Shown here: piece after piece, positions 1 through 36,696 of the stretch
Layout of the letters: each line of letters starts with the position of its first letter
Position numbering within the stretch: position 1 is the first letter of the stretch
Source of the DNA: Trichodelitschia bisporula
Taxonomy: Eukaryota
NCBI GenBank assembly: GCA_010356995.1
Contig: ML996715.1
Coordinates: 7,648 to 44,343 of the forward strand
Direction: 5' to 3'
DNA length: 36,696 nt
The notes under the pieces: model-generated
What the model was told of the DNA's origin: nothing
The model's input: the letters and a program-made list of their open reading frames with translations, nothing else
The model's database searches: none
Program-made: the position numbers and the translations under genes

Positions 1-1717
1 CTTTACGTCCAGCTTACAGATATCATGGACTCCAAAGACACGATGGCATGAAACCCTTCGGAAACCTTCTGCATCCATCCAAGCGCCTCAAGCCAGTGAA
101 GGAGATGCTCCTTCAGGAACTCATGAACTTCACCGTCATCGTTGAGCTGAGATCCACTCTTATGAAGATGCTGTATCCAGTAGAGGCATGCATACTGCTT
201 CTCAGGTTGGAGGGAGCCTTCAACCTTATGACTGTCGACCTCGGTCTTGAGTACTCCAGGCCGACCTATTCCAAGCATGTCCTGCGTGAGGAAGTCTGAC
301 ATGACCTGTATGCATTTCGTGGCAAGGGCTTGATGCGCTTGCTTTTCATCGACCCAGAAACCTGTATCTCCGCTTCTCTTCGAGTCGAGAAGGAAGTCAC
401 GGAATGAAGGGTGGTGTAAACGGAGTGGGTAACCTGGTTCCTTTGGAATGTCTAAAATGGCGTAAAGAACACCCAGTATCTGACTCACATCATCCTGTGG
501 GATGTTGAGCAGCCTGCTCAAGGACTGGGTGGAAAGTGGAGAGAGCAGGGTTACAATGCTTCCAAGAAGACCTTTGAGCTCAGATCGGACCTCATCTTTC
601 TCCTCGTCTGAATAGCGGGGAGAAGTGCAGTGGTTAAGGACCTCTGTGTAAATTTTGTTGAGTTGCTCTACTGGGGAGTCGACAGCAGTGCGACTTTGGT
701 TCAGGATCGTTTCCAGTCTCTTTGTAGCAATTCGCTTTAGCTTTCCGTCATGAATAAAGCGGCATGCGGTTGCTGCCCAGATAAACAGGCCACTTGCGTG
801 CTGAACAAGGCGATGAATGATTTCCTCGCCTGGCCAGCTAGCGTGAAGAGAATATTCGTGGGCAATGCATGCGAGTTGGTGCCGTAGAAAAGTGCGGATA
901 TCGTGGTCAACAATCGATGGTGGTATATTGTGGAGTACAAAATCCCGGTGTTCGTCTTCCGGAATTTTGATAGGAAGCCAAGGTCTGCTCGTCAAAAACA
1001 CTCGGAGCCGTGGCCTCTCCAACAACCGAGCTTCCGCCAACAGTTGCAGAATGATCCGTATGCTGTCCTCATTCTCGCACTCGTCGAGCGCGTCAACCAC
1101 CAGCATAAATGCAAAAGGGAATTGGTTGCCCTTGAGCTTCGACAATGGACCGAGGACAAGATGGCGCCACTGGTCGAGTAGAGACAGGTTTGCGATGTTG
1201 CTGCGCTTGGTGATAGCATCGCAGATGGTCGGCTTCAGAGCCTGCACGTTGTCTGCAAGTTGTACTGCGATGCTTGTCACAAACTTGCCGGCATGGCTAA
1301 CATCTCCGCCACCTCGAGAGAAGAAAAAGCTGGCTCCAAGAGATTCTTCCACGGAACACCTAGCGGCCACTGTTTGCGCCACCGTGGACTTGCCAGTACC
1401 AGCCAACCCACTCAGCCAGAAGATGCTTGGTGAGTTTTCTTCATTGACCCAGCTGTGTATCTCCTGGAGAAGGTCGACACGGGTGCCAGGAAGACAGGTA
1501 GACTCAAGTTCTCGTTGGCGTGCATTAAATGGCGCATCGGCAGCAAAAGGTAAGGCCTTGAGCCCGTTGTCATCTAGGCGACTAATTAGCCTCGGTTTAT
1601 AGCGAACAGTTACATATACTCACCGCTTCCAATACTCACAGGTCCGAATTGGCCGGTAAGAGCAATTGAACGGTTGGAGACAGACACGCCGCTGATGTTT
1701 TGAGTACTGCCAGACAT
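1..1717 (-). CDS. Fungal NLR (HET-E/NWD2-like NACHT, probably NACHT-WD40) with short N-terminal amyloid-like motif; 3' end outside window
   Basis: Exon1 1717-1624 (MSGSTQNISGVSVSNRSIALTGQFGPVSIGS). Phase-1 intron 1623-1574 (GTGAGT...GCTAAT...TAG). Exon2 1573-18 is in frame: APFNARQRELESTCLPGTRVDLL, Walker A WLSGLAGTGKS, Walker B LVVDALDEC, FLTSRP, ASGLFIWAATAC, HHPSFRDFL, YACLYW, HLLHWLEAL. Next donor GTAAGC at 17. Confidence 0.93.
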
Positions 1718-2216
1718 GAGATTCGAAGCCGCGACGACGTAGGAAATTGCTGATATCAGGCTACTGCTCTATCATGGCAAATGTTGTCGAGCGCACGCGC
1801 GTTAATATCCAGGAGTGACCGTATATGCATCTCGGATCAAGACTGAGTTGAGCTAGGATATGTACAGCTTGTTGTGGTCTAATGAACCACCCTGCCGCCA
1901 TCGCTCAGCCAGAGAATACGCCACGACTCAGGCTGAGCCGAAGCGCAGCCCAGTAATCTCGCTTTACGCCCTGCCACCCCGCTCATTATGTGACTGCCAG
2001 TTGCTTTTACTGGACTACGGCAAGACCATTCAGCATGCATTCCACCAGCGCTCGCATAGCAGCGCGTCAGGATGCTTATGCGGGTTTCCTGCGCCTCAAT
2101 ATTGTCGGCGTACCCGAATAAGCTGTCGGCGTACTCGAATGAGCAGTCTTGGGCGGCGGACACTGGTGGTAAGTTGAGGTGGCACAAGGGCTTAAGGGAC
2201 AGAGAATGTGGATGGA

Positions 2217-2469
2217 TGTTAGGGCGAAGCAAGCGACAATTTCTTTGATGTATTTAATCTAGGACAAGGCTTGATTATAAGATAAGAGACAAAGAGTCAA
2301 AATGAGAACAGCGCGAATCTAAGTTATAGGCCGTGAACGAAGCTGCATCGGACTTCGGCGTTGTCTAGCATCGGCTTCGGCATTTACCGTGCGTCGGCTT
2401 CGGCGTCGCCGCGCTAAGGCTGGCTGTCCGGGCGCATCCCCACTGAGCTGCTCGGCATGAGCCGTGACA
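2217..2469 (-). mobile_element. Solo LTR (253 bp) with 5-bp TSD ATGGA
   Basis: TG...CA ends with imperfect terminal inverted repeat (TGTTAGGGC / GCCGTGACA). ATGGA at 2212-2216 and 2470-2474. Shares CATCGGACTTCGGCGT with the reverse complement of the LTR at 27305-27676. Confidence 0.8.
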
Positions 2470-2947
2470 ATGGAGTTGGATGAGAGAGCAGAGCTGTGGA
2501 ACAAGTCTTGTTGGTTCCTTGGCACTCTGGCCCTATACTTGCCTGGCTCAAGCTGAAGGCCTGCCGACCCTTGGACCTTGCCGGGGTGAGTGCTCACATC
2601 CGGTGAAGTGAGCCAGATGCTAGGTTGACAACTGGTACGGCGAAGATGCCTTGCGACGGCTAACTGTGTGTTTCCTTACTTGGCAGTCTGTTGCCATCGC
2701 TGCCTGTCCCTAGCACGCTAAGCTAAATACGATGATTCGTTGCAGCCCGCAATATCTCCTCAGCTGAAGAGCCCTCCTCAGCCCTAAATACTACCCGTTG
2801 CCTCCCTCAACAGCCATCTTTTCCTTCCTTTGTGCAAGACTCCATTCGTCTATCGTCGCCTACTTGAACCTGCCTTGATGGTTTTCTTCTGTTTACTTTC
2901 AGCACGAGAGCACATACAACGACTCTTGAAGCCAACCCCCAGAACTC

Positions 2948-3897
2948 ATGGATCCCTTGAGTATCGCTGCAAGCACTCTGGGCATTGCGCAGGTTGTCGT
3001 AATCAGCATCGTCAAACTCCATGATTTTATCAATGAACTCGCTGAAGCTGATGAAGAGCTAAAAAATATTGCTTCGAACATTGCGGGTATCCATCTCGCG
3101 TTGACCGCCCTGGGGGAACTCGACATTTCCACGGAAAGGACTCGGGCTGTTCTCAAGAAGGCTGGCGTCGCTGAAGCCGTGAGCAAGTGCGGCGCGCTAT
3201 GTGACAAATTCACCAAGAGCCTCGAACGGTGGACGAAACATTCCAGCGGGAACAAACTCTCCTTCAGAGATCGCTTATTAGTCGGCATGTGGCACAGCGA
3301 GAAAATCCGGACGTTCAAGATGCGGGTTCAGTCTTGCAAGGACACAGTTCATTTTGCCGTTTCATGTACCCAGCTGTAGGCGAGCTGTCAAATACCATGT
3401 TGGCAGACACACACTAACGCTAGAAAAGGATCATCTCACTTGACGATGAACATTCTTCTGAGGATCGTCGAAAGGAACTAGAGATACGAGCACGGAAGGT
3501 GAGGGAGGAAGTTAAAGAGCATGTCGATCTCAGCAAAACGCAGCAACTTGAAGCACAACAGCGCAAGAAAGAGTTGGAGAAAGAGTCCGACAGCGAAACA
3601 GAAGAAGCCTTCCAACTGCGAGAGTCCGCTATTGAAGAGGTTGAAAAGCAGTTACGTCTCCTCAGGGTCGATCAAGAGTCCTCTGAAGCAGTTCTCTCAC
3701 AGCTACCCTCCGAGTCAGTGGAACAGGAAATTCGCGATATCCGCACTGCCGAGAATTCGTGGGCTGCGGTAGGGTCGTCAGCGAGTGTTGTCGGAATTAC
3801 TCGTCAGCGAATTGAAGGGGTACATACGACGAACCAATCCGTTGCGGTTGTGGGGAGATTTGACGTGACTTCGATTCCTGGCCCCATGTCACGGTGA
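2948..3897 (+). CDS. HeLo-like (HELL/SesA-type) protein with C-terminal two-repeat HET-s-related amyloid motif, ~298 aa
   Basis: Exon1 2948-3375 begins MDPLSIAASTLGIAQVVVISIVKL, a hydrophobic N-terminal helix typical of Helo_like_N/SesA. Intron 3376-3428 (GTAGGC...CTAAC...AAG) joins it in frame to exon2 3429-3897. The C-terminus has two pseudo-repeats, QEIRDIRTAENSWAAVG and QRIEGVHTTNQSVAVVGRF. Confidence 0.85.
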
Positions 3898-4211
3898 TGG
3901 CGATGGCATACGACAACCTCGCCGCATCATTGCGCGGTTGACAGTGGCGTCGGCAGGCAGAAGCCGACTGTGACTCACAATTTTTAATAAGTGGCGAAGG
4001 GAACAGGCTGGAAGGTTCCAGAGGATGTTTGTACGTCACCAATATGCGGATTGTGGATGTGTGAGTGCTGCTGTGTGTATTGTGTGTAGATCTAGCGAAG
4101 AGGGAGTTCAAGAACCCGCTCAGCAGGTGGAGAGTTGACTGCCAAGCCATGAGGCCGGCCTAGTCCATTCATATTTGATCTCATCTTGCCATCTGACCTT
4201 GGGTCAACAAA

Positions 4212-4307
4212 AGGGAGCCGGTGCCAGGCTGAAGACGGGGCAATTTGAGGGAGGCGCGGTGGTTCAATGCAGAGGAAAGACGAGCACACGTTACTGCTTA
4301 TCCAAAA
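4212..4307 (+). repeat. ~96-bp dispersed repeat, copy 1 (copy 2 at 17580-17677)
   Basis: AGGGAGCCGGTGCCAGGCTGAAGACGGGGCAATTTGAGGGAGGCGCGGTGGTTCAATGC... aligns colinearly with 17580-17677. Confidence 0.75.
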
Positions 4308-4689: not shown

Positions 4690-5451
4690 CTATGACGTAT
4701 TGAATTTCCATCGCGAGTTAGCGTCACTGCATTGGGGACAACTGCGCTTGTGGATGGCGAGGTTTCCACGTTACGAAAATTTCTGGCCACATTCACAGGC
4801 AAACGGCTTTTCCCCGGTATGGGTGCGCTGGTGGTCTATCAAGGTATCCGGTCGTGAAAAGGCCACGCCGCAGTTGGCAACGCTGCAAGGGTACGGCCTC
4901 TCTCCGGTGTGAGTGCGCTGATGTCGGGTCAAGCCTTTCGACCATGAATAACCACTCCCGCAGCCGGGAAACTGGTAAATGTACGGCGCCTCGGGGGCAG
5001 AAACGTCAACCACCTCGTTTGTCTCGGGATGGACATAGATGTCAACAAGATGGCCAAGAGCCTCGTCTGGGACGCAAAACACCACCCTAAACGTTTGCTT
5101 CTCCGCCCGTAGAGTCCGGCGCTTTGTGCTCCGCGTCTGAGCTGCCTGGGGTTTGGCCGCTCGAGTTGTTGCTGATGTCGTGGTCGTTGCCGCTGCTGTC
5201 ACTGCTCGAGCCCTTGCTGTTGCTGCCGACCGCCGCGTCTTTTCTCTGCGGCTGTTCCGAAGGCGTACCCGCTTATGCGCCGCGCTTACATGCCGGGCAA
5301 GGTGATCCCGCCAACCGTATTTCTTGTTGCATCCTTCGTGCGTGCAAGGGTGGGCGAAGTTTCCTCGAAAAGTCGCTTCGTGATCGCGGGCGTTCCACGG
5401 ACGCGTGTGCGTCTTGGGGCATTGCGGGCATTTGTATATCCCGGTCGACAT
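4690..5451 (-). pseudogene. Multi-C2H2 zinc-finger protein, probably pseudogene
   Basis: [41 protein letters not shown]. In-frame TAA (4771-4773) interrupts the last finger (FS*RGNLAIHKRSC). One finger has YIYQFPGC in place of Y-C-xx-C. Confidence 0.7.
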
Positions 5452-5664
5452 GGCATCGCGATCTTTGGCCAGAATATTAGCGGAGAGAATGAAAAACCTG
5501 GGGGGGGGGGGGATATCAGATCCTGTCGCAATCTGCAAATGTCTCTTTCGTGCAGCTTTTTCAAGGTAGGTCGCGTCGTGCTTTGGATCTTTGTGGATTC
5601 TGGCTAGCTTTAATGTGGGGGCTGATTGCAATGCCTACAATCCCCGAGCAGCGAGGTGTCACAG

Positions 5665-7764: not shown

Positions 7765-9037
7765 TTACCTGCGCTTTCTACGATGTACTTTCGCTGGTGG
7801 TAGCCTCGGGTCGGTGGCCTGTGGTCCGCTTTGCGTAAGTGCTGGTGTGGGAAGTGTGTTCTGCGTTTCGAGGCCCTGCGCTGCTCTGCGGGCTGCGATA
7901 TTGCGACGATTCAAATGTGCGGGTATCTGTACCTGTCGTGTCTGGCATCCAGAGTCGTGGTGTGGTGCTAAGCCAGCGCACCCCCTGCAAGACGCGAGCG
8001 GTTGGGCCCTTTGGGCCCCGTTGGCGGTTCGCTCACCTCCACTGGCAGCTCGCTCACCTCCACTGGCAGCTCGCTCACCTCCACTGGCAGCTCGCTCACC
8101 CTCACTGGCGGCTCGCTCACGTTCACAGGCAATGACGCCGAGAAGCTCCTTCGCATATGCCGCAGCAGCAAGGCCAGCATGTCTCTGCCACTCTTCATTT
8201 TTGTGCTCGTCGCAGTAATCCGAAATGCCCCTGATGACAAGACATGGAAAATTGTTCATCAAGCCAGCGGCTTCCGTTTCGAAGCAAAGGCAATCCCCTA
8301 TTCGTCCGAGCTCATCTCGGATTGTGGCGTCTTTAACAACCTCGTTGCCAGAAGCAATGGTTCCATAGTGAACAACTGGCCCCGGGTGACGGCGGTCGTG
8401 AGGTTCATGTTCGTTTGGAACTCCGTATCCGGATTCGACGTAACTCAGATCGGTTTCCAGTGTCCTCCTCACCCTTTCCGATATGATGGCAGGGTTCCCA
8501 ATGAGATGTATCTCCAGAAATCTCACTGCGTTTTGCAGGAGAGCTGGGGGAGCGTTCAAAGAACCAGTTTCCCTGAATTCATACCGGTACGCCTTGCCCA
8601 TATCGTACTGTCTGACGCCCCCATAGCCAGAATTCGGTGCGCTCACGACGACGTCGCCTAGCCGTATATCATGTGCAGGAGATGGAATGCCTCCTCCAAT
8701 GCCGACCATGAGACCGAATTTGATGTTCGGGAATGTCGCGAGCACTGAGGGATTAGCCTACCGGTATGCAAGTAAGAGGCCAAAACTAACTGTGCTGCGC
8801 CGCAACGGCCGCAGATGTTGTTCCCGCCTGAGAGCAGCACGTAATAGCCACGTTGTGATTTCCCGTCTGACCCCCGATGTGGCCCAAGAAGTACAAATTT
8901 TGATCTATCGGGTTTCTCTGCTCCGGCTTAAGGCCTGCATGTCGTACATCAAGCATCGCTACAGCAGCATATGCTTCGTGCGGTAAGGCAGCAACCCATG
9001 CGACCGTGTATTGGTCGCTATCCAATTGGGAGGGCAT
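7765..9037 (-). CDS. Stand-alone PNP_UDP (nucleoside phosphorylase, NLR-effector type) protein with repeat-containing tail
   Basis: Exon1 9037-8791 (YTVAWVAALPHE...NLYFLGHIG...HNVAI). Intron 8790-8745. Exon2 has FGLMVGIGGGIPS, DIRLGDVVVS, QYDMGK, VHYGTIASGNEV, CFETEAAGLMNNFPCLVIRGISDYCDEHKN, AAAAYAKELL. No NACHT follows. 3' end uncertain. Confidence 0.85.
8022..8130. repeat. 21-bp tandem repeat, ~5 copies
   Basis: Unit CTGGCAGCTCGCTCACCTCCA; encodes (G)ERAASG in the annotated frame or VSELPVE in the shifted frame. Confidence 0.9.
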
Positions 9038-17911: not shown

Positions 17912-19878
17912 TCATGACAGCAGCGCAAATTCTGAAACAACGTCCTTGAGCATGTTGTCGAGAACAACGCACGTGAAAAATCCGGGATCGAAAATCACGA
18001 ATAAGACGTTTGGACACGTCGCTAAATGAACATTAGAGATCCGGACAAATGACAGAGGGAAGGTTGAACTTACGCAAGGACTTTGCTGGCCGAGAAGTTC
18101 GGAAGTCGACCACGACCCACTCTCTAAAATTGAAAGAGGTGTAACGGCCTTCCCCGACAAACCGGTCGTAATGCTCCTGTAGTTGGGTCCCGTCCCGCAG
18201 CAATTCAATACCCCAATGGACCCCAGGGATCACAAAGTCGATTCGCTGCCCGCCTAATTCCTTGCTGGAAAACTCCGGGGTGGGAATGATGCGTGCTCTG
18301 GTGACCTTGTATATCGTGCGGTGGAGTTCGGCGCCATAGGCTGCTTCTGGAGTCTTGGATTCTCGTCGCAGAGCATTCCCACAAAACGACTTCAGGCCAG
18401 TCAAGACACACTCCCGTACGCTCTTGAATGGGAAAGGACCGGTGAGATGTGGGACAACGGTGATCGCGGCAAACCTGGCTAAGGTTAGCTATAATTCGTG
18501 CAAAACAGTATAATGGACGTACCAGCGATGAACTTCGGTCGGATAAGTATAGACTATGGAATCGCCGTCTTTCACAACGGCATGCAGGTAGCCCTTGACA
18601 TAGCACTTGCGAAGTGCTTCAGGATTTGTGTCCTCTAGCTGAGCGAACCCTTCTATCGCAACCTTGATGAGAACATTGCGGACATCGGGGTCCCGAAACG
18701 TGGAATGAGGAAATCCGCGGTATGCAGCACAGGATTTGATGACGTTTACGAGGCCATCCCTATTGAACAAGAAATGCTCAAGGGAAGCAGACTGAATTTC
18801 CTTTCCATTTCTGACGATAGTTTTGCAATGCTGGACCATTGAAGGCTGAAGTCAGCAACGCCCAACCGTACAGATTGCTAGGGAAAAGGATGAGACCCAC
18901 ATGGGATTCCAGGAAATTCTCAATCAGGGCAGTCGCAAGGCCAATGTGACCCTCAGAAAACTTGAACAGCATGTCTAGGGCCTCATTCGAGATTGATGCG
19001 GGTATTGCCGTAGTCTTCTTCATCCCCCAGCTCATGAACTCTTCTTGCGAGAAAAACATGCCCACGGAGACAAAAGCTGACGGACGTAGCCCGACGATGC
19101 AATTCTCGGGAAGTGTAAATGGAGTCAATGCACACTCGTCATTGCCAAGGTCCGCCGAACTGCCATAGCAACAGGCGAAGACAAACTTGATACTTTGTGG
19201 TCTTTTTTTGAAATTCTCCAAGACACCCTTGATAGCCTCGTTCCAAAAGGCTGCATCAGCGTAACTCGTCTGCCCTTCATCGAAAAGAATGTAGGCTGGA
19301 GTGCAAAGGACGTCTGTGTGAGCATCCGGCATTAGTTCCTTCAGCTGATCAAACCAGGGCTTCGTTGCCCCTTTAGGGTAACGGGAAAGAAGATGGACCT
19401 GATTGCCTTGGAGACGAAGGTAGTGATAGAGGAGGTCCATGACGCTGGTCTTTCCGGACGCAGGGGTGCCTCGAAGCTGAACGACACCGGTGCGTTCAAG
19501 AAGCGCGACCACAGTCTCCAGGAGAGTTGTTCGGGGCTCCAGGTGAAGGTATTTTGCGACTTCATTGGACGAGATATCGGGTGGAATGGTATTTCGCTCG
19601 CTCGCACCTCTCGCGATTGTGGCAAAGGATTCGTCTTGGGGCACTTCATTCTGGTTAGCTAGGCCGGGGAAGGATGAGTTGCTGTCCTCACCAACGTCAA
19701 TCCCCGAAGAGGGCGGTGCAGCAGCTGTAGTCGGCAGACTGGGCGTGTCGTGGATTGAGAATGCATGATCGCAAACTGTGCAGGCTGGATCACCGCCTGC
19801 GCCCACCGGTGCCGAAGCCTGCATGCAACTGCACGCCATCATTCCTTGCCTGAAGCAGCATGGTCCACGGAACACCAT
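17912..19878 (-). CDS. P-loop NTPase + PD-(D/E)xK-like nuclease (Crinkler-related NTPase+REase type) with N-terminal Cys/His-rich domain, ~603 aa
   Basis: Exons 19878-18901, 18845-18523, 18474-18074, 18021-17912 splice via GT-AG into a 1812-nt ORF. Walker A RGTPASGKT, Walker B ILFDEGQ, EGHIGL. C-terminal PEAAYGAELHR..PEF..RIDFVIP..WGIELLRDG..LQEHYDRF..VVVDFR. Start codon could be further upstream (19929). Confidence 0.8.
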
Positions 19879-20683
19879 GATGGGTGGGCTGGAAGGGCAT
19901 GAAGAGAGAGGGCGCCGGAATATTTCCATGATGGATGATAGCGTCCCTAAATTTGGAGTTCTTGATCGCGACTGACGTGGGTGCAGGCAGTATTGATGAT
20001 GTGAGTTGCTAGGCCTACGTGTTAAGGTAAGGTTCGGTTGCTTAAGAGAGAGCTTCCGGCCTGTCAGGGGCGCACAAATCACTGGTTGCACAGCATTGGT
20101 TGTGGAATAACATTCATTGAAAGCTTGAAGGACTATGTAAGGGTTTCGCGGTGACCGGGGAGTAAGCGGCGAAGATCTCCATGAGCTACTTGCGTCAGTG
20201 GATAGCCCTATGATAGAGTCGCAAAGCTAACCTTGTCCTCACGAAGATGTGGAGTGTGGGGGAGCTGGGGGTGCTAGCGCAACAGGCCAATGCCAAGTCC
20301 TTACCCCTGCAAGTCCAACCGGGCTGGAATTGCAGGATCAGCCATCAAGCTTACCAAATCACGTGACCCACACAGGGCCTGTGGCGATTTGACATGGGAG
20401 AGATGGTATCCTCCCATGACACGGCCTTTGTTTATTCGCCTAGCACATGGAATTTCCTTCAATCAATAACACAGGCGTGTATCCTTGGACGCACGCAAAA
20501 AAAAAATCTATATCGACGCACAATTCGAATCCAAAGCTTCCAGCCAACCGATCATCACTTTGCCTTGATTGATACCACACGGAAGCAAGGCTATGATGGA
20601 CGGGCTCTCTGTACAGCCAGTGACGATCAGCCACGTTCCGACGTAGCCACGCAATTGAATCAAGCCACCGAATCCACTCACTC

Positions 20684-28440: not shown

Positions 28441-29494
28441 CTACAAACCCTGAGACAAACAGATACCCAGGTCAGACGAGAGAGGAGTGAGTCCGTGGTC
28501 TTTGAGGAAGAGGGCCAGGGTTTGATACCAGATCCCCGGTGACTGCTTGAGTCCGTAGAGGGCCTTCTGCAGCTTGCAGACGTTGTTGGTCCCGTCATGG
28601 AATTCTGGCGGCTGTTCGACATAGATCTCTTCGTCCACCGTGCCGTAGAGGAATGCCGTTTTGACGTCCACCTGCTCCACTTCCAGGTCGAGCGCAGCAG
28701 CGATGGCAAAGAGGGCCTTGTAGCTCATGGGCTTGACCACGCTGGCAAATGTCTCGTTGTAGTCGATTCCTCCTTGTTGCTCGAACCCCCGGACCACCCA
28801 TCGAGCCTTGTAACGCGACACTTCCCCGTCGGGACCACGCTTGAGCTTGTAAACCCATTTGCCACGCAGCACCCTGCGACCGGCTGGTAGCAGAACCAGC
28901 GTCCAAGTTTGGTTGTCGATGAGTGACTGGTGTTCGTCGTGCGTTGCCTCCTTCCATTTGAGCCAGAAGTAGTCTTGTCGGGCTTGCGCGAGGCTTTTCG
29001 ACTCGAACGGTTCAAGGTTGTTCAGAATGCGCATCGCAGTGCTGAGGAACCCGCACATAAGGGCAAAATGGGTGTTCCCCTCGGTATCGGAGGAGGATGG
29101 CAGATTCCCTACCCGTCTCGAGCGTCGAAGCTCGGCTGTTTCAACCGGGTCCCGATCCAGCCGCTCAGGCATGTGGACTCTGATGACGTCGTCTTCGGTG
29201 GGATCATCTAGTGGTGGGTCGTCCAAGGGTTGATTGAGCGGGAGGGCGCTGGCTAGGGTAGCCGAATGAAATGGAGTGCCACTTGGCAAAGGGTATGCTG
29301 GCGGATCGGTGTCAGCTTCCCCGTCTCCCCCACCATTTGCAAGTGGAACGCCTCCATACTGAAGTGATGGAGCTCCCCCATGCTGAGGCGCGGTACGGAT
29401 GGAGGCTCTGTCGCTTCCTCGGGCGAAACGGTGGGCTGTTCAAGTCCTTCGTGGTGATAGCGCTTTCCGTGAAGACCACGTTCGGGGTGCGCAT
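28441..29494 (-). mobile_element. Ty1/copia pol fragment (post-integrase linker + N-terminal part of reverse transcriptase)
   Basis: WKEA..E..SL..NQTWTLV, KWVYKLK, RYKARWVVRGFEQ..GIDYNETFA, QVDVKTAFLYG, EEIYVEQP, LQKALYGLKQSP. Ends before YVDD. Confidence 0.93.
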
Positions 29495-32725: not shown

Positions 32726-33729
32726 CTTACTGACAGCCGGAGTGGTGGGCGGGACGACCTGAAAACCGAGTTTAGACATTTATCTGTCGCTTGATGTCGT
32801 CGCGTTGTTGTCGCGCACATGTCAGTGAGGAAGCGGCTTCTGCAGATCATTTTTCTTGTTCCCTCGTAGGCGCTTCTCCCCCGATACGAGGCCACAAAAG
32901 CTGGTGCAGCCTACTCCGCATGGACGGGAGGTACAGCACAGTCAAGCACCTCACGCAAGAAAATCGCCTTACTGTTTCGTACCATGGTAGTTTAAGCACG
33001 AACCACACGACTCTTCGAGCTCCGCCGGCATCTGCCTTCGGGAGGGGTGCAATAGTTCTAGTGTCCAAATCCGCAGTGGCCAACCGATGATGGGATAACT
33101 TATTAGCTTATGAGCAGGCCTCGTCGACGCCCAACCTCAGTGTACTCCGTACAACGGAGCAGACAATGCCTTTGCCGGCTGGCCATCTGCCCTTCCATCC
33201 ATACGTCGTACTGTGTAAATCTAAGCCTCTGTTATTGGTAGAAGTGTCGCCCTGGAGTATGCATGTAGACTGAAGAGGCGTGTTGGCATGTTAGGCCTGC
33301 GCCTTTGAAAGAGGAGTTGAGACTGCGCCTTTGAAGGGGAGGGGTGGCTCCCATTCCCTTTCTGTTCATTCTCCGCTCAGCCAACTTCGAAACGCACGCT
33401 GCACGCTTCACGCATCATTCGGGCCTTTCTTCTTGGCTGGTTGTACAACATGTCCCGCTATTATCGGATCAGAAAGCCACATCATCGGTACGAATGCATT
33501 TCTCTAATCACTGCCTCCTCTAATTCGCAATAGCCCAAAACCAACTAGGCTAGGCAAAGCCAGGAGCCTCCTCGTTAACAAATTTATTAAGAGCCGTCGG
33601 CCCACTATCACCGTTCTTCACAATATCGCTTCGCCGTCTCCGTCGAAAGTGCGCAGCCCTGTGGGTGGCGTGAAGGAGGGGGCAAGGAGCAAAAGACTCA
33701 TCATTAGGGAGGGAGTCTCGCCTCCCAGC

Positions 33730-36696
33730 ATGGATAGACAGCAACTAGACAAGAAGGTAGGTTCTCAGTTCGTATGGCCCACCTCGTGGTCTACAGAAAT
33801 CGAATGCAAACCCACTGACAATGTGGAGCTCTCCCATACTGACACGGCTGCTGTTCGGAGCCTACTGCGCCAATTGAAGCATTCGGAATACACAATAGGA
33901 TGGATATGCGCACTCCCTATCGAACTCGCGGTTGCCCGAGAGATGCTGGATGAGGAGCACCAGGATCTCCCTCAGAGTCCACCAGATGACAATCTCTACC
34001 GACTTGGCCGCATTGGCGAACACAATACTGTCATTGTGGGCTTTCCGGCCGGATTCACGGGCTCCTCCCAGGCGGCCCGGGTGGCCAGTCAAATGCAGAC
34101 GACTTTCAAGTCGATTCGGTTTGGCCTTATGGTGGGCATTGGAGGTGGTGTGCCGAGCCGCAGATATGATATTCGACTCGGAGATGTTGTCGTGAGTCAA
34201 CCATCGAATGGCCATGGCGGAATAATCCAGTACGACTTTGGCAAAACAAGACCGGACGGGTTTGAGCGGACTGGTTTTTTGAATTCACCTCCAACCGCCT
34301 TACTGAGCGCTGTAGCGAGTCTGAAGGCCAATCGCGACTTAGAAAAAAAATTCCTACGCCACCTTTCGAAACCGACCCGTCAACCTTGGTTTGCACAGAA
34401 TGCCGGACCAGACGTTTTATATTGCGCTAACTACAACCATGACCGACCTGGTACTGATGACTGTCGGGAGTGCAAAACAGAGCATGTCGAACAGCGACAG
34501 CCACGTGAACATTTCATCGTCCATTACGGCACCATAGCGTCCGGAAATCAAGTCATGCGAGATGCTACGACAAGAGATAATGTCAGCAAGGACCTTGGAG
34601 GTGTACTCTGCTTTGAGATGGAGGCGGCGGGGCTTATGAACCATTTCCCGTGCCTTGTTGTGCGGGGCATTTGCGACTATGCGGACTCGCATAAGAATAA
34701 GAACTGGCAACCGTTTGCGGCAGGGCTAGCAGCTGCGTATGCAAAAGAGGTACTTTTGTTGATGCCGGCAGCCGAAGTCGAGACAGGGTCATCTGCGGTT
34801 GAGTTGATGAACCAAAATCTTGGTAAGTAGCCTTCACCTTTTCTTAGCTGGTAGAGGTCATAGGGAAGATAGGGTTAACCGCAGTCGTTAGAATTCAATA
34901 AGGTTCTTGGAAACATTCCCACGGCTGTAGAAGCGCCTTTCAATGCACGCAAACGAGAACACGACACTGCCTGCCTCCCTGATACCCGTGTCGCACTTCT
35001 CAAGCAGATATATGAATGGCGTGATGGCATGGACTCCCCAAATATATTTTGGCTGAGCGGGTTGGCCGGCTATGGCAAGTCTACGGTTGCGCGAACAGTG
35101 GCTGCCAGGTGTTTCAAGAAAGGCCTTAGCGCCAGTTTCTTCTTCACCAAAGGCGGCGGAGATGTTGGCCACGCCGGCATGTTTGTTACAAGCATCGCAG
35201 TGCAGCTTGCAAATAATGTGCCGGATCTAAAGCCGGTCATTTGCGATGCCATCGCCAAGCACAGCAACATCGCAAGCCTGTCTCTACGCGAGCAGTGGGG
35301 CCGTCTTGTTCTCGCTCCTTTATCGCTGTTTGGAACCGATCAATCCACTCCAAAATTTCTCCTGATTGTCGACGCTCTTGACGAGTGCACAGATGAGAGC
35401 GATGTGCGGATCATTCTTCAGCTTTTCGCCGAACTTCGAGGATCGCACCAAACCAGGCTCCGAGTATTTCTGACGAGCCGACCCGAAGCTCATATCCGGG
35501 ATGAGATTCAGCATATACCAGAAGTGGAACACTACGACTTTGAACTACATGGCATTCAACAGTCGGTTGTCGAACATGATATCCGCGTTTTCTTAGGGCA
35601 CGAGCTTCGCCGTATTTCCTGCAAGTACTTTGACCGCACTAACTGGCCAAGCGAGCAGATCATCAATCGTCTTGTTCAGAACGCAAGTGGCTTGTTCATC
35701 TGGGCTGCTACGGCATGCCGCTTTATTAGTGAAGGGAAACAATTCGCCCCCGACAGACTGGATTCGATCTTGGACCAAGGCCATACCGAGGGGAACACTC
35801 CGGAGAAGCAGCTCAATGATATCTATTCTACTGTTCTCGAGCAAAGCATTCCTGCAGGCTTTTCGGGAAAAGAGAAGGAAAAGCTGCGGTCTATGCTGAA
35901 ATCTCAACTTGGAAGCATTGTAACCTTATTCTCTCCACTTTCCATCCAGTCCTTGAGCAACTTAATGGAAACTCGCGACGACAAAGTAAGCCAGACACTG
36001 CACGATCTCCACGCCATTTTCGACATTCCAAAAGAGCCAAATAGCGCACTCCGTTTACACCACCCTTCATTTCGGGACTTTCTTCTGGATAAAAAAAGAA
36101 GCGGTAATGCCAAGTTCTGTGTTGACGAGAAGCAAGCACATCAGTCTCTTTCTGCGCACTGCATGCGACTTATGTCCAAATCCCTTAAGCAAGACTTGCT
36201 GGGAATCGGCCGTCCGGGTGCGCCTGCAACAGAAATCGAGAACGATCGACTGGAGAGATGTCTCCCTGCTGAAGTACAATACGCATGCCTCTACTGGATC
36301 CAGCATGCTCAGAAGGGTGGCTCCCAGCTTAGAGATGATGACCAAGTCCATCGGTTTCTAAAGGAGCATCTTCTTCATTGGCTTGAGGCGCTTGGATGGA
36401 TGCAGAAGGTTTCCGAAGGGTTTCATGCCATCGTGTCTCTGGAGTCCATGATATCTGTAAGCTGGACGTAAAGCAGAGTGGGGATACTTGGCTGATACTT
36501 GGTTTAGGCGCAGAGGTGTCCGCGATTATCGGAGTTTGTTCATGACATGAAACGATTTGTCCTCTACCACCGGTCAGCCATCGAACTAGCCCCCTTACAG
36601 ACATATTGCAGTGCGCTGGTATTTTCCCCGGCAGCAAGTCTTGTAAAAAGGCAGTTTCAAAGCCAAATGCCTCTGTGGATGCCCGGACTGCCGCAG
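33730..36696 (+). CDS. Fungal NLR PNP_UDP-NACHT-(probably WD40); 3' end outside window
   Basis: PNP_UDP (YTIGWICALPIE, FGLMVGIGGGVP, CFEMEAAGLMN..CDYADSHKNK) to 34822. Phase-1 intron 34823-34891. NACHT exon 34892-36456 (WLSGLAGYGKS, IVDALDEC). Intron 36457-36507. Exon from 36508 reads DMKRFVLYHRSAIELAPLQTYCSALVFSP, the linker that precedes WD40 repeats in HET-E-like NLRs. Exact 5' start uncertain. Confidence 0.93.

Follow-up and report, generated by a model that had tools for sequence, protein, structure and literature searches.

A putative NLR/effector amyloid-signalling module of the HRAM2 subclass in the fungus Trichodelitschia bisporula

Do a receptor gene and a small divergent neighbour in the genome of Trichodelitschia bisporula, whose products carry related short motifs at opposite ends, form an amyloid-signalling pair, and which of the known systems would such a pair resemble most? 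The two genes lie near the start of a 36,696-nucleotide stretch of contig ML996715.1 (GenBank assembly GCA_010356995.1, positions 7,648 to 44,343 of the forward strand), which is referred to below as the window. One gene, on the minus strand, encodes a NOD-like receptor (NLR) with a NACHT domain, and the other, on the plus strand, encodes a 298-residue protein that we call the effector. We consider it very probable that the two genes make up an NLR/effector amyloid-signalling module of the HET-s-related amyloid motif (HRAM) class, subclass HRAM2. The class itself is already well described (PMC4518210, PMC9815663); what is said here and below from these two papers and from bioRxiv 10.1101/2020.07.06.188508 refers to the accessible parts of each.

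An HRAM is a unit of 21 residues with glycine at position 19 and hydrophobic residues at positions 5, 8, 10, 16 and 18, of which position 10 may also be threonine (PMC4518210). Two copies, r1 and r2, end short proteins with a HeLo, HeLo-like or SesA domain, and a single copy, r0, heads a neighbouring NLR; such an NLR was found for 98 of 155 HRAM proteins (PMC4518210). HRAM1 (HET-s) is marked by N at position 3, HRAM2 by Q and HRAM3 by H; HRAM4 and HRAM5 have Q at positions 18 and 16, respectively. The r0 motifs are poor in D, E and K and rich in S and H. A preference for R or K at position 15 and, in HRAM2, a closer likeness of r0 to r1 are trends and not strict criteria. An example of an HRAM2 r1 is TKQNIRDVKTTGNSIALAGLI (PMC4518210, supplement 2).

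The two genes of the window are arranged head to head (Table 1). The NLR starts at 1717, the first in-frame ATG past an in-frame stop at 1771, and its first exon (1717..1624) reads MSGSTQNISGVSVSNRSIALTGQFGPVSIGS plus one base. This exon joins the NACHT exon in frame, the product continuing as 'DDNGLKALPFAADAPFN...CLPGTRVDLL...GLAGTGKST'. The effector starts at the ATG at 2948, 1,231 nt from the ATG of the NLR, and its spliced coding sequence is identical, letter for letter, to the annotated 298-residue protein P0005, KAF2395504.1 (hypothetical protein EJ06DRAFT_485117). An earlier note on this DNA had proposed a 31-codon exon with a motif, R0, at the head of the NLR, and a divergent gene 1.2 kb away that ends in two repeats, R1 and R2. 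These structures are borne out, the repeats as written there being effector residues 242-260 (R1) and 269-287 (R2), as are the two splice junctions that it had predicted, 1573 to 1624 and 3375 to 3429, both of which are carried by public contigs.

The contigs come from two public runs, X1 and X2, which contain 60-68% of the sampled words of positions 1400-3950; they were aligned to positions 1-4300. One X1 contig joins 1415-1573 to 1624-2258, with 50 nt skipped and 0 mismatches. X1 and X2 each have a single contig with the joint between 3375 and 3429 (53 nt skipped, GT..AG); these effector contigs, which start at 2870 (X1) and 2951 (X2), both reach 4209. Precise removal of canonical introns is the behaviour of cDNA, and both genes are therefore taken as expressed and spliced as predicted. 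Depth bins 2305-2736 lack contig cover in both runs, the gap extends to 2880 in X2, and no effector contig listed reaches below 2870. The gap between the two transcribed regions is a candidate shared divergent promoter, although lacking contig cover in itself proves nothing.

Some other joints and splice sites were considered and rejected. A GTGAGT donor that precedes the accepted one in NLR exon 1 (after codon 26) is excluded by the frame and by the contigs. A TAG acceptor in the effector (3421-3423) would shift the frame, and the annotated protein and the contigs use the later AG. A joint from 427 to 515 (87 nt skipped, GG..CC) is non-canonical as an NLR intron; the contigs concerned differ from the window (95-99% similar to the NACHT exon), and the skip most likely comes from paralog transcripts. 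The upstream ATGs of the NLR leader open reading frames of 4-53 codons.

Table 1. Coordinates of the NLR and effector genes, their motifs and the region between them (positions in the window)
Feature	Position	Strand	Description
NLR exon 2	18..1573	-	NACHT NTPase and winged-helix region; Pfam matches
NLR intron 1	1574..1623	-	50 nt, GTGAGT...CTAAT...TAG, with CTAAT as branch site; from sequence and X1 contig
NLR exon 1	1624..1717	-	94 nt, 31 codons plus 1 nt; entire pre-NACHT N-terminus including R0
R0	1646..1708	-	21-residue HRAM2-type motif STQNISGVSVSNRSIALTGQF, NLR residues 4-24
NLR 5' leader	1718..2286	-	At least 540 nt, 8 upstream ATGs; contigs to 2258 (X1) and 2286 (X2)
Candidate shared divergent promoter region	2287..2869	.	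Suggested by the gap in contig cover
Effector exon 1	2948..3375	+	HeLo-like (HELL) domain; PF17111 1.3e-17, AlphaFold2 helical bundle
Effector intron	3376..3428	+	53 nt, GTAGGC...CTAAC...AAAAG; from contigs and annotated protein P0005
Effector exon 2	3429..3897	+	End of HELL domain, long helical hairpin, predicted prion-forming region, stop
R1	3718..3780	+	21-residue pseudo-repeat VEQEIRDIRTAENSWAAVGSS, effector residues 240-260; AlphaFold2 strands 240-249, 254-260
R2	3799..3861	+	21-residue pseudo-repeat TRQRIEGVHTTNQSVAVVGRF, effector residues 267-287; AlphaFold2 strands 267-276, 281-287

The N-terminus of the effector, which had been proposed to be HeLo-like, belongs to PF17111 (E 1.3e-17 with exon 1 and 4.6e-17 with the full protein; 62.5-64.3 bits, cutoff 27.2), and the match reaches residue 198. 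It is the only family on the full-length protein at E <= 0.001. At E <= 1 a stray Relaxase_C match (E 0.15) appears, below its threshold. Residues 4-22 are strongly hydrophobic (Kyte-Doolittle 19-residue mean 2.15), and this segment resembles the membrane-inserting N-terminal helix of toxic HET-S-type proteins. PF17111 was formerly called Helo_like_N and is now named PigL_N in UniRef and Pfam, after the N-terminal domain of azaphilone pigments biosynthesis cluster protein L, and the name would suit an effector that is a protein of secondary metabolism with an incidental likeness to the motif. Pfam scans of ten large open reading frames (ORFs) of the window, however, returned NLR parts, PNP_UDP, a C2H2 zinc finger and a reverse-transcriptase relic, with no polyketide synthase or tailoring enzyme. 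The family is treated in the literature as a HeLo-like death domain (PMC9815663), and the motif statistics given below exclude chance. A role in secondary metabolism is thus highly improbable.

The NLR is a NACHT protein, in agreement with the identity first proposed: its second exon matches PF24883 (NACHT/NPHP3_N, 2.1e-29), PF05729 (6.2e-7) and PF25521 (6.4e-4), and its Walker A sequence, GLAGTGKS, lies at 1386-1409, so that the receptor has the NACHT domain of an NWD2-type NLR. The reading frame is uninterrupted across 554 visible residues and ends at window bases 5..3, and GTAAGC at 17..12 is a likely donor. At exactly this exon end, four T. bisporula paralogs have more sequence after '...LESMIS', and one of them, P0027, runs from this point directly into a WD40-type repeat. 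Because of the donor and of the continuation of the paralogs, the gene almost certainly leaves the window at its start and extends into a repeat domain. The last 117 residues of the NLR are 86-91% identical to three of the paralogs and 70% to P0027, and two of the four, P0020 and P0027, have recorded WD40 families; the repeats beyond the window are probably of the WD40 type.

The resemblance of the three motifs is stronger than chance would give. R0 and R2 share 9 of 19 residues without gaps, as the earlier note had counted, with a BLOSUM62 score of 51, the highest for any pair of 19-residue segments taken from the exon-1 peptide and the complete effector. None of 20,000 shuffles of the exon-1 peptide reaches this score (maximum 42), and 54 of them reach nine identities. 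The internal repeat formed by R1 and R2 is matched by 14 of 5,000 shuffles. On a 21-column profile built from 42 r1/r2 motifs of 21 other effectors, with the window's own effector left out, the R0 peptide scores 18.0 bits, which is the best of 121 NLR N-termini and is reached by none of 5,000 shuffles (maximum 9.9). When the 36.7-kb window is scanned with this profile in six frames (1,204 segments), R1 (26.9 bits), R2 (25.6) and R0 (15.8) lead and the fourth segment scores 6.3. The motifs are short and R0 shares just 5 of 21 residues with R1, as might be seen if low-complexity peptides matched by chance. The shuffles (0 of 20,000 and 0 of 5,000), the occupation of the top three places among all window segments and the recurrence of the identical arrangement in independent loci, described below, reduce the probability of such a coincidence to a negligible level.

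Position by position, the motifs conform to the HRAM definition. All three have Q3, I5, V or I at position 8, T or V at position 10, A16 and G19, and position 18 is T, V and V in R0, R1 and R2, respectively; the core is I5 I8 T10 A16 V18 G19 in R1 and I5 V8 T10 A16 V18 G19 in R2. At positions 4 (E/R) and 6 (R/E) the charges of R1 and R2 are opposite; the two repeats are separated by a loop of 6 residues and have a spacing of 27 residues. R0 contains no D, E or K and six S. HRAM pairs have an effector of up to about 310 residues with an N-terminal HeLo, HeLo-like or SesA domain, two C-terminal 21-residue repeats with G19 and the core pattern, and an adjacent NLR with a single N-terminal r0 that resembles r1 and r2; the window has a PF17111 protein of 298 residues, R1 and R2, and the divergent NACHT gene.

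The marks of HRAM2 are likewise found in R0, R1 and R2, all of which have Q, and neither N nor H, at position 3 and no Q at position 16 or 18. The two trends that accompany this subclass, R or K at position 15 and an r0 closer to r1, are not. By its residues the motif is of subclass HRAM2 and is not the canonical HET-s motif. The earlier note had called the motif HET-s-like and the pair one of the type of HET-S/NWD2 and related pairs; the paired HRAM module stands, and the narrower assignment gives way to an HRAM2 motif, an effector with no match to PF11558 or HeLo and a likeness to HELLF/FNT1. The sequence DIRT, to which it had also drawn attention, does occupy positions 7-10 of R1 in a register identical to that of HET-s r1 (Daskalov 2015, PMC4518210, supplement).

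Structure prediction bears on what the repeats might do. The AlphaFold2 model of the effector, built on a 29-sequence alignment, has a predicted local distance difference test score (pLDDT) of 86.5 and a predicted template-modelling score of 0.73, and it contains a helical N-terminal domain, a long hairpin (154-194, 201-234) and four strands that coincide exactly with R1 and R2. When a profile of 29 full-length effector homologs was compared with solved structures, the sole significant match was 6EKA (E 1.2e-5, positions 231-298), which we take to be the solid-state NMR structure of the HELLF prion domain. It is a 78-residue Podospora anserina chain, identified as the HELLF prion-forming domain by its aligned sequence and by bioRxiv 10.1101/2020.07.06.188508. 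A predicted complex of effector residues 232-298 with the 31-residue R0 peptide scored 0.06 in a run without controls.

The N-terminal domain, modelled alone, is a helical bundle (pLDDT 84.7). Residues 1-143 of the model align with the MLKL N-terminal domain 6ux8_A at Z 10.7 (root-mean-square deviation 2.8 A, 117 residues aligned), where unrelated helical bundles reach Z 10-12, and with the coiled-coil (CC) domain of potato Rx at Z 9.4 and the CC-R domain of NRG1.1 at Z 8.6, a range common for any helical bundle. A Foldseek search of this domain against the PDB gave the weak rows 2msv, 6zvo and 7l7v (best E 0.05), and the VIA-align list for the whole model is dominated by generic helical hairpins aligned to residues 151-238. 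Nothing significant, and neither MLKL nor HET-S, was found when a profile of the domain was compared with PDB sequences, the best match being a syntaxin (E 0.003). The model is consistent with the expected four-helix-bundle fold of MLKL/CC type and is not diagnostic of it.

Relatives of both genes recur in other fungi. A word-index search found 11 relatives of the effector and an exhaustive search 413; a search with its C-terminal half among longer proteins returned the window's own protein only. Six homologs are 44-52% identical to it, including those of Camillea tinctor, Amniculicola lignicola, Alternaria alternata, Pyrenophora tritici-repentis and Bipolaris oryzae. Both repeats and a ..SVVG.. 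linker are kept in five of these six, and the 257-residue Bipolaris homolog stops within the linker, without r2. A loose Q-type motif pattern is present in 36 of the 160 family members examined. Among the best 120 NLR homologs, 43 have fewer than 130 residues before Walker A, and HRAM2-like N-termini (10.6-16.9 bits) are found in P0059 and P0070 of Agyrium rufum, P0062 of Eremomyces bilateralis and P0078 of Sarcosagium campestre.

By reading, many of the short N-termini among the NLR homologs P0016-P0135 show amyloid-like motifs, of several kinds besides HRAM2, including PP-like (...FGDxNSGFQAGIxNG...), 'YQNIxIxxxAxAxLGDxYxI' and 'FTNDGGRIxxQxGQ'. This variety suggests many parallel signalling specificities on near-identical NACHT receptors.

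The head-to-head layout is itself recurrent. In a scan of metagenome contigs, relatives of the effector are encoded at 12 loci, and upstream flank is available for 11. A divergent upstream NLR with an r0-like N-terminus is present in L002 and L003, where it is a NACHT-ANK protein, and in L007 and L008, where it is a NACHT protein (that of L008 matches the window NACHT at 1.9e-138). L004 and L012 have an r0-like peptide 266-451 nt upstream, with the contig ending before any NOD domain, and L005 and L009 have a divergent NB-ARC NLR (TPR repeats are seen in L005), with the contig ending before the effector tail; no divergent upstream feature was found in L001, L006 and L010. The NLR N-terminus matches its own effector tail in four of six testable pairs, the observed score being reached by 0 (window), 1 (L002), 0 (L003) and 0 (L008) of 2,000 shuffles. 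The window pair has a cognate score of 56, against 23-35 with foreign effector tails. On the minus strand upstream of the L009 effector, an ORF starts with MASIIGPNYQGLQVATNQGTINY, a different, PP-like motif.

A number of observations weigh against a module of this kind. Position 15 is I, W and V in the three motifs and not the R or K preferred in HRAMs, R0 and R1 are only weakly alike (score 15), and R0 is nearer to R2 (9 of 21 identities against 5 of 21 for R1), opposite to the HRAM2 trend in PMC4518210. PF11558 (HET-s_218-289) is unmatched at E <= 1 in the C-terminal 156 residues of the effector and at E <= 0.001 over its full length, and HeLo (PF14479) is unmatched at E <= 1, which leaves PF17111 as the sole death-domain family. 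Foldseek found no PDB match at E <= 0.001 for the whole model or its N-terminal domain, and the matches to MLKL and plant CC domains have Z values usual for helical bundles. The missing basic residue, the weak likeness of R0 to R1 and the inter-repeat loop of only 6 residues would also suit a real co-regulated NLR/HELL module whose motif serves ordinary heterotypic binding or regulation, such as beta-strand addition, with no self-propagating amyloid or prion. Against such binding, the motifs agree with the HRAM definition in core pattern, G19 and arrangement as two repeats, the effector profile finds the HELLF prion domain, a solved beta-solenoid amyloid, and AlphaFold2 places beta-arches on both repeats. 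We consider heterotypic binding of this sort unlikely and retain amyloid signalling as the better account of the motifs.

Other points of the same kind concern the genes and their relatives. The RNA nature of X1 and X2 is a guess from their records, for which the spliced joints argue. The sensor repeats of the NLR would lie beyond the window, outside the sequence read, and a search of database proteins of at least 917 residues, in which the best match is 64% identical, did not return the NLR of the window itself. The 8 upstream ATGs of the NLR leader may limit translation of the receptor. In Agyrium rufum the HRAM2 effector P0157 is apparently on a different contig from the HRAM2-NLRs P0059 and P0070, and clustering is therefore not universal. 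L007 (129 of 2,000 shuffles) and L012 (130 of 2,000) are individually not significant, the cognate partner ranks first in just three of the six pairs, and co-variation is borderline: the cognate sum of 252, against a permutation mean of 211, is reached by 36 of 720 permutations, and by 12 of 120 when L008 is left out. Of the co-occurring and co-varying pairs that had been suggested as a check, the head-to-head NLRs with matching N-termini are found, and the co-variation of r0 with effector tails is no more than suggestive.

The leader and the position of the NLR 3' part beyond the window could also point to a different function, in which the effector is chiefly an allorecognition prion or incompatibility determinant that acts, like het-s/het-S, via allelic variants, with an NLR that is dispensable or decaying. 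HET-s itself is such a case (PMC4518210). The frame of the window NLR, however, is intact over its visible length and is present in spliced contigs. R0 is the top-scoring of the 121 NLR N-termini, and the effector keeps the hydrophobic N-terminal segment likened above to that of the toxic HET-S-type form. An allorecognition role with an idle receptor is, we believe, very unlikely, and the two-gene signalling module remains the preferred reading.

How would such a module work? By analogy with HET-S/NWD2 and HELLF/FNT1, we infer that an amyloid forms on the template of r0 and that the effector targets the membrane and kills the cell. The NACHT receptor carries a single uncharged, serine-rich r0 at its extreme N-terminus, and its ligand-driven oligomerisation would gather the r0 segments into a cross-beta fold. 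This fold would template R1 and R2 of the neighbouring HELL (PF17111) protein into a two-rung beta-solenoid. Conversion to the solenoid would free the hydrophobic N-terminal helix (residues 4-22), which may then attack the plasma membrane and cause cell death.

There may be a distinct group of seeding specificity within HRAM2 that comprises the window pair and the nearest homologs of its effector (in Camillea, Amniculicola, Alternaria and Pyrenophora and at several metagenome loci), a tentative proposal that we regard as rather doubtful. The group would be marked by the 27-residue spacing and the ..SVVG.. linker in place of a free loop and, in the window pair, by the hydrophobic position 15 and an r0 that mimics r2. 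NLRs of three architectures, a NACHT of a WD40-associated clade, NACHT-ANK and NB-ARC-TPR, appear to be wired to this effector lineage. If the proposal is true, the lineage would be a portable cassette for cell death, with a motif that drifts from one sensor to the next.

The pair leaves the current picture of how HRAM systems work unchanged. It is a cleanly resolved addition to the known pairs, comes from an order of dothideomycetes that has received little study and has transcripts in support of both genes, and it shows that a 31-codon first exon, missed by ORF-based annotation, can hold the whole signalling domain of a receptor. The pair would be a convenient test case for HRAM2 and, as structural and prion studies have been published for HRAM1 (HET-s) and HRAM5 (HELLF), could serve in cross-seeding barrier experiments between motif subclasses. 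A motif-string search did not find the motifs of this locus in two supplements of PMC4518210, and the gene was not found by accession, species or locus tag in 11 of the 13 supplementary files of PMC9815663 (files 9 and 10 excluded). A full-text literature search returned no mention of the gene identifiers, and the literature on the species is taxonomic or genomic by title.

The receptor has a mosaic relationship to its paralogs. Compared with the PNP_UDP-headed T. bisporula paralogs P0017, P0019, P0020 and P0027, its NACHT region (window 1-1573, minus strand) is about 45-57% identical in the mid-region and 86-100% identical over the last ~170 residues for P0017 and P0020, with the same rise in P0019. 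R0-headed and PNP_UDP-headed NLRs therefore have a nearly identical segment in common just before the repeats, a pattern that suggests recombination, gene conversion or swapping of N-terminal modules.

The rest of the window contains further genes and gene fragments related to NLRs. A second NLR is encoded at 33649-36471 on the plus strand, with PNP_UDP_1 (1.6e-8) followed by NACHT/NPHP3_N (7.8e-25), and is probably the 944-residue 'purine and uridine phosphorylase' P0027. A PNP_UDP_1-like ORF at 7765-8745 (minus strand; 24.9 bits, cutoff 25.1) has imperfect C-terminal tandem repeats (ERAASGG-like), and no NACHT ORF is seen downstream of it; it could be an NLR head that has been truncated or has decayed. 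A 437-residue ORF at 18778-20091 (minus strand) has a weak match to nSTAND3 NTPases (1.2e-4, below cutoff) and could be a further gene of the STAND type. At 28441-29289 (minus strand), a fragment of a copia-type reverse transcriptase (RVT_2, 9.8e-44) is a transposon relic within this NLR-rich region, and a C2H2 zinc-finger ORF (zf-H2C2_2, 1.5e-12) lies at 4771-5631 (minus strand), directly downstream of the effector gene.

Which known system does the pair resemble most? The nearest characterised system would be HELLF/FNT1 and not HET-S/NWD2, because the motif is of subclass HRAM2, PF11558 is unmatched and the effector domain is HeLo-like and not HeLo. FNT1 is an NLR of the NB-ARC/TPR type and NWD2 one of the NACHT-WD40 type. 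HELLF/FNT1 of P. anserina has been studied experimentally; the window pair is known here from sequence and models, and its NLR is of the NACHT type. Both effectors begin with a HELL domain, carry two HRAM pseudo-repeats of 21 residues at the C-terminus and are of similar length (298 residues here; the prion-forming domain of HELLF ends at residue 277), and in both systems the adjacent NLR gene has a single N-terminal r0 (bioRxiv 10.1101/2020.07.06.188508). They differ in that HELLF is HRAM5, with Q near positions 16-18 and a QxFG sub-motif, features that the Q3 motifs of the window lack.

HET-S/NWD2 (HRAM1; PMC4518210) shares with the window pair the head-to-head NLR and effector genes, a NACHT NLR whose r0 resembles r2 more than r1, DIRT at r1 positions 7-10 and a charge-poor, S-rich r0. 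It differs in the effector, which in the window has PF17111 and not HeLo (PF14479), in the match to PF11558, in N3 where the window has Q3 and in an inter-repeat loop of 15 residues against 6. In subclass the closest counterparts are the HRAM2 pairs of Daskalov 2015 (PMC4518210; e.g. EYB22904, EWZ36199), from which the window effector differs in its 27-residue spacing, its conserved ..SVVG.. linker and its hydrophobic position 15. In these pairs, as in the window pair, position 3 is Q, the residues follow Q-x-I-x-x-[VI]-x-[TA]...S-x-A-x-x-G and the loop is short (7-8 residues in the catalogued pairs); the effector begins with a domain related to HeLo, and the NLR next to it carries an r0.

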